Source of the DNA: a virus
Lineage: Duplodnaviria > Heunggongvirae > Uroviricota > Caudoviricetes
IMG/VR virus record: IMGVR_UViG_3300006201_000003
Span: 64,095-128,094 of that record
DNA length: 64,000 bases
Reading direction: 5' to 3' (one strand)
The number at the start of each line of letters is the position of its first letter. The stretch's first letter is position 1. Below are positions 60,520 through 61,175 of the stretch, piece after piece. Both the position numbers and the translations under genes were made by a program. Below the pieces are notes generated by a model that saw only the letters and a list, made by a program, of their open reading frames with translations, was not told the origin of the DNA and ran no database searches.

Positions 60520-61175
60520 GCGGATTGCCTGCCATGCTGGACAGCCTCAGCCCGCCACGAATCGCCCCAGGCAATCACCCCAGGCCAGCGGCCCCGCCTG
60601 CCATGCCTCAGCATGGAGAGAGGGAGAGACAGACAGACAGACGGACGGGCACGGCCAGCGGAGCAGCGGCACGGATGACGGACGGAGAACGGAGAGAGGA
60701 GAGAGGAGAGAGGAGAGAGGCGCAGACGGCCAGCGCAGAACAGCGCCAGCGCCCAGGAGCCGCCGCCCCTACTCAGCCAGCCCAGGCAATCACCGCCAGC
60801 CGCCAGCAGATCAACCAGACCCGCCCCGCCTCCCGTCGTGCTGTCTCCCGCCCAGCATGGACAGCCGGAGAGAATCGGAGAGGAGAGGGAGAGAGGGAAA
60901 AGGAGAGGAGCAGCCCCGACACACTCAGCCGCCCGCCGTCATAATCATATATAGCCGAACCCCGCCCCCGCCTCAGCCTTGCCCGCCTGCCGTGCTAAAC
61001 CAGGAGAGGCCAGCCGCCCGCCGTTTTTCTCCCGTCTCCCGTCGTGCTTTTGCCGTCGTTGCAATTCTGCTTTTGAAGAGAAAACAGAACTCGGCACAAA
61101 TAACCCCGAATAAACACGGGAGAACCCCGCCCCGCCTCAGCCTTGCCCACCAATGACAGGGGGAGCCTCTACATT
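60520..61175. repeat. T-poor, purine/cytosine-skewed non-coding region with degenerate direct repeats and (GGAGAGA)n; candidate ori or attP.
   Basis: (GAGAGGA)x4 at 60698-60726; repeated CCCAGGCAATCACC (60568, 60783), CTCCCGTCGTGCT (60831, 61034) and GAACCCCGCCCCGCCTCAGCCTTGCCC (60957, 61126). The only long ORF (60525..60944) is low-complexity. Confidence 0.55.

Follow-up and report, generated by a model that had tools for sequence, protein, structure and literature searches.

A T-depleted noncoding block in the control region between divergent operons of an SPbeta-like phage family

Background

The DNA analysed here, a stretch of 64,000 nucleotides (the window) corresponding to positions 64,095 to 128,094 of the IMG/VR virus record IMGVR_UViG_3300006201_000003 (Caudoviricetes), comes, to judge by its gene content, from an SPbeta-like temperate phage of Oscillospiraceae that encodes its own replisome and a YonO-type RNA polymerase. 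Close to the right end of the window the direction of transcription changes: long open reading frames (ORFs) to the left of position 60306 lie essentially all on the minus strand and those to the right of 61446 on the plus strand, with divergent promoters at 60430-60402 (minus) and 61413-61441 (plus) that are conserved in all lineages checked. An earlier note on this DNA, made from the letters alone, had placed the divergence point of both transcription directions here, as these promoters and the orientation of the ORFs confirm, and had drawn attention to a noncoding block between them that is depleted of T on the plus strand. The best explanation of this block is that it forms the variable core of a cis-acting control region, approximately 1.1 kb in length, separating the two divergent operons.

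Composition and repeats of the block

The plus strand of the block (60520-60944) consists of 25.4% A, 34.4% C, 33.6% G and 6.6% T, compared with 27.9% T across the window as a whole, such that the reported depletion is real. T falls to 3.8% in the core (60590-60800), the lowest-T 300 nt of the window (4.3%) start at 60615, and 60482-61027 is the sole region of the window in which T drops below 10%. The four longest T-free runs of the window, of 93, 62, 61 and 49 nt, are all found in the T-poor region. Those T bases that remain in the block are isolated, with TT nearly absent, and the GC content is 65-68%. The earlier description of some 650 bp almost free of T applies to 60520-60944 but not to the right part of that interval (60945-61175), which at 19.5% T is only mildly depleted and in which T-free patches alternate with an A-free run.

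All of the repeats listed in the earlier note are present. A (GGAGAGA)4.3 tract at 60691-60720 (100% match) forms a perfect mirror-repeat homopurine run; the direct repeat CCCAGGCAATCACC occurs at 60566 and 60781; the CTCCCGTCGTGCT pair, CCCGxCTCCCGTCGTGCT, is found at 60825 and 61031 (94% identity); and a C-rich 27 nt repeat is paired at 60961 and 61125 (89%). By our own estimate, fewer than 0.01 of each of the 18 nt and 27 nt pairs would be expected by chance in DNA of such composition. These repeats do not, however, constitute a tight iteron array: the long direct repeats are degenerate, irregularly spaced and lineage-specific, with only the 5-6-mers CCAGC and GGAGAG recurring across lineages, and the spacing of CCAGC exhibits merely a faint preference for 6 nt with no fixed phase.

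A profile search of the window with nhmmer for a second copy of the conserved core matched only the known copy. The only A-depleted stretch of the plus strand (53312-53630) was considered as a second copy of the element and ruled out, as it corresponds to an ordinary minus strand gene (53291-53620) that encodes a small, very basic protein and has its own ribosome-binding site and terminator. Homopolymers in the region vary among close relatives: the C8 tract at 60380-60387 is C9 in the relative L002, which also has a C13 tract further right, in the segment termed block B below, while two others (L009 and L006) carry C9 and G8-9 homopolymers. Such differences may represent either slipped-strand variation or sequencing difficulty.

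Conservation of composition and selection against T

Approximately 85 related loci were collected, via the tyrosine recombinase encoded to the right of the block, from IMG/VR, GTDB/bacterial genomes and metagenomes. A T-poor block was present in every locus at which the recombinase was at least 64% identical and at least 700 nt of upstream DNA were available, always on the recombinase-coding strand and about 500-950 nt upstream, with minimum T contents of about 1-9% per 200 nt. No such block was found next to recombinases of only 29-37% identity, and blastn searches of INPHARED phages and PLSDB plasmids returned no similar DNA.

The block is not alignable between lineages, which share instead its composition, its length class (about 310-500 nt), CCAGC, purine motifs and a polypurine tract. 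Each block contains 7-16 copies of CCAGC, all in one orientation, amounting to 63 observed against 22.8 expected across seven lineages; the corresponding figures for GGAGAG are 23 and 4.0, and GGA is found 7-22 times per block. The terminal polypurine tract (60877-60911, plus strand) is conserved in position, a purine run of 13-40 nt being found 40-78 nt before a conserved island (described below) in 14 of 15 lineages.

Within one close lineage, nucleotide diversity in the block is 0.13-0.30, compared with 0.089 for the recombinase gene at its four-fold degenerate sites and 0.01-0.07 for noncoding DNA in the flanks. Substitutions were counted among 30 distinct sequences of one such lineage. 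Changes from C to T occur at 0.097 per C in the block and 0.239 in the right flank, while changes from G to A occur at 0.322 and 0.228 per G, respectively; hence, inside the block, C to T is about threefold rarer than G to A (Fisher p = 1.3e-4). Variants creating a T make up 11 of 90 in the block, compared with 35 of 80 in the right flank and 21 of 63 in the left flank. As diversity exceeds that of four-fold degenerate sites and C to T changes are in deficit, the block drifts no more slowly than expected of neutral DNA, and new T bases on the plus strand are removed. The lack of T is held by selection: the sequence is free, and the composition fixed.

Two mutational sources of this bias were considered and rejected. 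Single-strand deamination does not fit, as C is not depleted on the A-poor strand; and a self-templating process or adenine mutagenesis of the type found in diversity-generating retroelements is not supported, as no YxDD reverse-transcriptase motif occurs in the ORFs of at least 150 aa in the window.

The block is noncoding

The ORF at 60525-60944 is open and is called by gene callers, which could be taken to mean that the block encodes an intrinsically disordered protein of 139 aa. However, an open frame is unavoidable here, as stop codons can occur neither on a strand free of T nor on its complement free of A. Across seven divergent versions of the block the period-3 power is only 0.2-1.8, whereas most neighbouring genes give 4-17; no Shine-Dalgarno sequence or ribosome-binding site was found for the ORF; and its ATG at 60534 is ACG in L002, a relative in which the flanking proteins are 98% identical. 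Neither Pfam nor PHROGs matched the ORF product. A search of 5.8 billion proteins for a conserved homolog, the finding named in the earlier note as one that would refute its reading, recovered two matches only, one identical and one with 67% identity, both gene-caller products from the same phage lineage. Given the absent periodicity, the loss of the start codon in L002 and the lack of homologs beyond the lineage itself, the earlier judgement that this is not a coding sequence is borne out, and translation of the block is barely credible.

Organization of the control region

The left-to-right layout of the control region is conserved in all lineages. At its left end, on the minus strand, a first copy of a short leader element (60303-60325, with GGCGAATAAAAT at 60309-60320) is positioned just upstream of the ribosome-binding site of the first leftward gene (59494-60306). 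It adjoins the GC-rich 5' leader of the leftward early mRNA (60324-60387), which is T-free on the plus strand for 62 nt, contains GGAGAACCGCC twice and has the C8 tract at its end. The leftward sigma-A-type promoter, TTGACA-17-TAGAAT, spans 60402-60430 and has equivalents in relatives; a second, minus strand copy of the leader element (60427-60449, with GACGAATAAAAT at 60433-60444) overlaps its -35 hexamer. The two leader element copies (60303 and 60427) and the C8 tract named in the earlier note are all present. The AT-rich 5' border of the block (60450-60519, plus strand) harbours a semi-conserved element, CATTTTGCCATAGCA here and TTTGTGCATTTTGACGAATAGC in many other lineages, for which a sigma-54 or extended -10 reading was a poor fit on manual inspection; the GC content of this left flank (around 60390-60520) is 43-46% when taken over 200 nt at a time.

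The T-depleted segment proper, block A (60520-60937, plus strand), includes eight copies of CCAGC, has little self-structure and is hypervariable among relatives; the (GGAGAGA)4.3 tract within it, on the plus strand, is shorter in L002. It is followed, also on the plus strand, by the conserved island GTCATAAT..CCGAACCCCGCCCC (60938-60969), the sole AT-containing spot within the T-poor zone, and then by block B (60970-61062), which is variable and C-rich, initially T-poor and subsequently forming the longest A-free run of the window (61013-61062).

Hairpins H1, H2 and H3 succeed block B in this order. The 5' arm and loop of H1 (61063-61090, plus strand), AATTCTGCTTTTGGAGAG, are nearly invariant across the family, while the 3' arm is variable yet remains complementary, giving arm pairs in different lineages of TTCTGC/GCAGAA, TTCTAC/GTAGAA, AATTCTGCTT/AAGCGGAATT and TTCTG-TTTT/AAAA-CAGAA. 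H2 (CCCG-N8-CGGG), followed by a second GAGAACCCCGCCCC..CCTGCC-type C-rich unit, occupies 61105-61151 on the plus strand, and the conserved GGGGGAGCCTCTACATTT comes after this unit (61159-61176, plus strand). H3 (61188-61214, to which no strand was assigned) comprises the palindrome GACTATC-ACA-GATAGTC, unique within the window, together with (C/T)AGTACC, which is conserved; across lineages, no fewer than eight distinct perfect stems are found at this position, followed by CAGTACC. Because the arms of the hairpins change yet stay complementary, they are read as acting as folded nucleic acid rather than as duplex binding sites. To the right, an AT-rich stretch of about 200 nt (61215-61412, GC content 33-38%, without strand), containing a leader-like motif at 61390-61401, lies ahead of the rightward promoter, a perfect sigma-A-type TTGACA-17-TATAAT (61413-61441, plus strand) also found in relatives. 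A further leader element at 61479 (plus) separates this promoter from the gene for a small tyrosine recombinase (61503-62267, plus strand), the first of a rightward yon-like operon.

The leader element GACGAATAAAAT is present in 23 copies in the window, compared with 7.3 expected, mostly on the coding strand 10-30 nt upstream of gene starts; the minus strand sites include 8311, 19164, 26939, 38552, 44245, 59456, 60309 and 60433. Its sequence differs among phage lineages, being GCAACAAAGAAAA in the L014 group. It could be either an operator for a repressor with a recombinase fold or a phage-specific promoter. The former possibility is suggested by SPbeta, in which the master repressor MrpR, a protein with a tyrosine-recombinase fold, binds the repeated element SPBRE (PMC10516654); as there, a short motif is found in many intergenic regions, and a small protein with a tyrosine-recombinase fold is encoded beside the control region. 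This likeness concerns the flanking leader elements and not the T-free block. An invertible segment between the mirrored leader elements was also considered and rejected, as about 80 loci all have the same orientation relative to the recombinase.

This arrangement raises the possibility that the block is a regulatory spacer, or insulator, between the divergent operons, which the exclusion of T would keep free of promoters on both strands and of terminators on the plus strand; the hairpins to the right would then serve as promoters or operators, used by a repressor or by the RNA polymerase that the phage encodes. Neither a T-free strand nor its A-free complement can hold a -10 or -35 hexamer or a AATAAAAT-type leader motif, copies of the leader motif border the region on either side as mirror images, and the perfect palindrome of H3 varies between lineages beside an invariant CAGTACC. 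The SPbeta operator bound by a recombinase-fold repressor (PMC10516654) provides a precedent, as does the promoter of YonO, which is of unknown type (PMC5467207). Yet plain GC richness would suffice to avoid promoters, and promoter avoidance does not account for the loss of T from a strand that still has 25% A; 430-650 nt of conserved length class and composition exceeds what an insulator would need; and the recombinase differs from MrpR in keeping all its catalytic residues. A role solely as a spacer is consequently regarded as rather unlikely.

The neighbouring recombinase and the question of attP

The recombinase gene begins at the ATG at 61503, rather than at 61446, and encodes 254 aa starting MNTQLSLFE. 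The product matches PF00589 (E = 7e-20) over its catalytic part only. Its catalytic residues R86, H193, R196, H219 and Y228 are invariant in six lineages, such that the R, HxxR, H, Y signature is retained; MrpR, by contrast, has lost these residues, and because all of them are kept here the recombinase is not equated with MrpR. The nearest solved structures are of the Xer type, only the C-terminal catalytic part resembling Pfam and solved recombinases, and no arm-binding domain was detected against either.

The proximity of a Phage_integrase-family gene and the many direct repeats had led to the suggestion that the block might be the phage attachment site (attP), comprising a core and arm sites for the adjacent integrase. 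The evidence from lysogens contradicts this. The order p136, gp111-like gene, T-poor block, recombinase and HNH gene is unbroken in all six bacterial genome contigs, among them contigs from isolates of Dysosmobacter segnis and Hominicoprocola fusiformis and isolate contigs as long as 164 and 388 kb, and the block has the same internal position in metagenome contigs of up to 653 kb, with phage genes on both sides across contigs of 110-653 kb. No tRNA or other attB-like segment was found, and the recombinase has no detected domain with which to bind arm sites. The attP reading is thus contradicted and is considered extremely improbable. Since bacterial contigs do not place the recombinase at the end of a prophage, integration may not be its function.

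Phage type and gene neighbourhood

The SPbeta-like identity of the phage follows from the rightward operon, which encodes, after the recombinase, YonV_C, a YonO-like 953 aa protein, YonK and an HU-like protein. The 953 aa gene lies beyond the end of the window, about 4.4 kb to the right of the recombinase start (5847-8708 of L126, from the same phage). Its product has distant similarity (21-23% identity) to proteins that several phage records list as RNA-dependent RNA polymerases; the gene for one match occupies the expected place of yonO, just upstream of an HU-family gene, in Spbetavirus BUCT082. The leftward 60 kb include genes for a DnaE-like polymerase, a primase-helicase, NrdD, RNA repair and antirestriction; the left neighbour of the block encodes a gp111-like protein with a weak helix-turn-helix-like match at its C terminus. 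None of the genes scanned matched a replication-initiator or Rep family, many genes not having been scanned.

Several other features were observed in the window and its relatives. The early leftward operon contains a MazF/PemK-like toxin gene (56715-57092, minus strand), which is found only in some lineages of the family. Three unusually long matches (114-118 nt) to Rfam tRNA models (29906-30023, 30029-30143 and 30357-30470, minus strand), none of which is called by ARAGORN, adjoin genes for a DUF2828/DUF7788 protein (28193-29803), an RNA ligase (25482-26921) and a polynucleotide-kinase-like protein (23445-24383); the cluster looks like a tRNA-like or Y-RNA-like RNA-repair module. In the relative L032, the rightward operon encodes a DUF1848 protein and a protein with an OGG_N domain (8-oxoguanine glycosylase N-terminal), at 9694-10497 and 11524-12378, which may have DNA-repair or DNA-modification functions.

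Among more distant phages carrying YonO, no T-free block was found either in MT835469 (a 176 kb fecal relative) or in the 11.4 kb examined of BUCT082. The latter (L129, 8632-8697) contains a DUF3800-VIII RNA motif (RF03075, 47.5 bits) in a long noncoding gap upstream of yonK, corresponding to where the YonO-dependent late transcript of SPbeta and an unannotated noncoding RNA start. In the Enterocloster phage CB473P1 (L131/L132, at the record ends), a syntenic divergent intergenic region of about 0.8 kb upstream of the YonO-like gene is of low complexity, with over 90% A+T, and is built of ATATAATATA-type repeats, making it the compositional opposite of the T-poor block.

The position of the block is reminiscent of the packaging start of related phages. 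In SPbeta-like Bacillus phages, the pac site and the point at which the genome opens fall between yonR and yonP, in the intergenic region from which the yonP-yonO operon starts (bioRxiv 10.1101/2021.11.22.469490), and the block likewise occupies a syntenic intergenic position, in the same type of phage, at the head of the operon containing the YonO-like gene. The block might therefore be a pac or genome-opening region, with its oriented short repeats bound by the small terminase. Arrays of short repeats are typical of pac sites in other phages, such as P1 and SPP1, and 24 of about 85 family contigs end inside the zone. However, these ends are scattered over about 550 nt without a shared end nucleotide, so the contig data define no DNA end, and the enrichment is best accounted for by assemblies breaking off in a region that is hypervariable, rich in GC and contains homopolymers. 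Neither exclusion of T from one strand nor hypervariability would be expected of a terminase recognition site, and BUCT082 has no comparable block in the 11.4 kb around its YonO homolog. A packaging function is judged improbable. One assembly artefact was noted separately: metagenome contig L071 begins (1-44) with a remnant of a Nextera adapter fused to phage sequence in the conserved region.

RNA structure and the possibility of a noncoding RNA

The plus strand of the block folds less well than dinucleotide-preserving shuffles in seven of eight lineages, with z between +1.25 and +2.74; the window itself gives +2.06, and the single exception, among the seven others, has a z of -0.47. Results for the minus strand are inconsistent among lineages. 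Rfam 15, including GOLLD, ROOL and HEARO, gave no match at the gathering score in the window or five relatives, with only noise up to E = 10. Hairpins supported by covariation are found only to the right of the block and not inside it. These were assessed by anchored folding of each lineage, RNAalifold producing a poor consensus on the 3' conserved region, in which lineages differ in loop length. In some lineages the polypurine tract could be seen by eye to pair over a long range with a pyrimidine patch before H1, but such pairing was discarded, as it is not conserved. The proposal that the block is a structured noncoding RNA accordingly fails for the T-free block itself, which is less structured than shuffled sequence and lacks any Rfam match; the approximately 250 nt to its right do contain conserved, compensating hairpins.

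An unstructured RNA is a different matter. The plus strand might be transcribed as a long, largely unstructured noncoding RNA almost free of U (about 6%), acting as RNA rather than through replication. Such a transcript could act as a sponge, titrating a protein with affinity for short motifs of the purine or GGA/CCAGC type (CsrA or Hfq-like factors, for instance), or could resist U-dependent RNases, including toxins of the MazF type. The selection against T on one strand, the low self-structure of that strand, the enrichment of CCAGC, GGAGAG and GGA in one orientation, and the hairpins with compensating changes after the block would all be consistent with this; sponge RNAs tolerate sequence drift, and a MazF-like toxin is encoded by the phage. 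Yet there is no convincing bracketing promoter or terminator and no Rfam match, the MazF gene is present in only some lineages, the enrichment of motifs follows partly from low complexity, and the pure A+T syntenic region of the Enterocloster relative has the appearance of a DNA element. Although unlikely, this explanation is ranked above the spacer, which is followed in turn by the pac, attP and coding interpretations.

A candidate origin of lytic replication

Ranked ahead of all these, though only as a tentative possibility, is that the block belongs to an origin of lytic replication that uses an exposed T-free single strand or R-loop. This reading is placed first because the block lies between divergent early promoters and beside the replication operon; because the phage has its own primase-helicase and polymerase, with no initiator family among the genes scanned; because there are precedents in the c2-type phages (PMC7150918) and in the R-loops of T4 (PMC3016281); and because the thermodynamics of RNA:DNA hybrids favours the retention of A and exclusion of T for A:T pairs. 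When nearest-neighbour energies of the RNA:DNA hybrid and the DNA duplex were compared as the former minus the latter, 60615-60914 emerged as the most hybrid-favourable 300 nt of the window for RNA of plus sense (ddG, the difference in free energy, -0.225 kcal/mol per step; z = -6.4). Also counted in its favour are the singular composition of the block, the conservation of that composition among relatives, the selection against T, the poor folding of the plus strand and the A+T-rich syntenic region of CB473P1.

Such an origin could operate as follows. Early divergent transcription would underwind the DNA between the two promoters, and a transcript, or plain unwinding, would expose the T-free strand over several hundred bases. 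A strand without T, whose RNA copy lacks U and which pairs poorly with itself, might form an unusually stable RNA:DNA hybrid, as an R-loop, or persist as a naked single strand. The phage primase-helicase could load onto the exposed strand, and the RNA, perhaps through its polypurine tract, could prime the DnaE-type phage polymerase. Loading and melting elements might be provided, on the right, by the conserved hairpins and the AT-rich DNA.

A number of observations weigh against this reading. No canonical promoter directed into the block was found on either strand, the only candidates being of the 9/12 type and overlapping the leftward promoter. C equals or exceeds G in most lineages, whereas R-loop thermodynamics predicts an excess of G on the RNA-like strand, and RNA of minus sense is also hybrid-favourable nearby (z = -4.8); since the minus sense scores almost as well, the hybrid-energy signal mostly reflects GC richness. 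That richness is also the opposite of a classical unwinding element. If short repeats that lack T turn over, both the low self-structure and the absence of T could in part be by-products of this process. The hairpins give conflicting signs as to the strand on which they act, as H1 and the hairpin H4 have G.U pairs only on the plus strand, while single-mutant variants of H3 that would be C.A on the plus strand are G.U on the minus strand. Finally, there are no regular iterons of 17-22 bp. The earlier suggestion of an iteron-type origin is thus only partly sustained: the position, the AT-rich flanks and the oriented short motifs agree with it, but regular iterons are lacking and the repeats are lineage-specific.

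A broader proposal, advanced with somewhat more reserve, is that the block is a 'composition-locked' cis element of 350-500 nt, defined by the exclusion of a base from one strand and not by sequence or fold. The functional entity would be the unstructured single strand itself, free of T as DNA or of U as RNA; a platform for R-loop formation or helicase loading at a phage origin, or a nuclease-proof U-free RNA, would be examples.

Relationship to known systems

No known family fits the block, the nearest kinds being variable phage origins and R-loop origins. In Ceduovirus (c2-type) phages, early and late gene blocks diverge from a noncoding region that contains the origin, varies more than any other part of the genome and yields a noncoding transcript proposed to initiate replication (PMC7150918). 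The T-poor block is similarly noncoding, several hundred bases long, situated between divergent gene blocks and, if an origin, retained in function despite its diversity of sequence. It differs in that c2 origins are bracketed by two defined early promoters pointing the same way, whereas no promoter into the block was found. In T4, oriF and oriG form persistent R-loops independently of specific sequence (PMC3016281); the block is comparable to these and to ColE1-type origins in that its phage has a helicase-primase of its own and in its predicted hybrid stability, the highest in the window. However, the T4 origins are about 100 bp in length, with a promoter and an A+T-rich unwinding element, while the block is 350-500 bp with 65-68% GC.

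We know of no instance in which exclusion of a base is a feature of c2-type origins, nor, to our knowledge, is one-strand base exclusion a feature of variable phage origins or R-loop origins in general. A more remote parallel is with immunoglobulin class-switch regions, which are long, repetitive and strand-asymmetric, contain short oriented motifs, and are defined by composition while varying in sequence. The block shares with them its repetitiveness, strand asymmetry and reliance on composition over sequence. Class-switch regions nevertheless have a promoter upstream and a non-template strand rich in G, while in the block G and C are about equal and the excluded base is T.

Conclusions

One practical consequence concerns assembly, as contigs of such phages often break at the block. 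For the phages themselves, the region is a candidate for replication or packaging control in an uncultured and widespread family of large SPbeta-like prophages (about 117-125 kb, or perhaps more) found in Oscillospiraceae of the human gut. Its function could be tested in two lysogens that are in culture, Dysosmobacter segnis BX15 and Hominicoprocola fusiformis CLA-AA-H269. If the interpretation is correct, selection would be maintaining a noncoding element purely by the base composition of one strand; searches based on alignment or covariance would be blind to elements of this kind, and similar ones may have been overlooked elsewhere.

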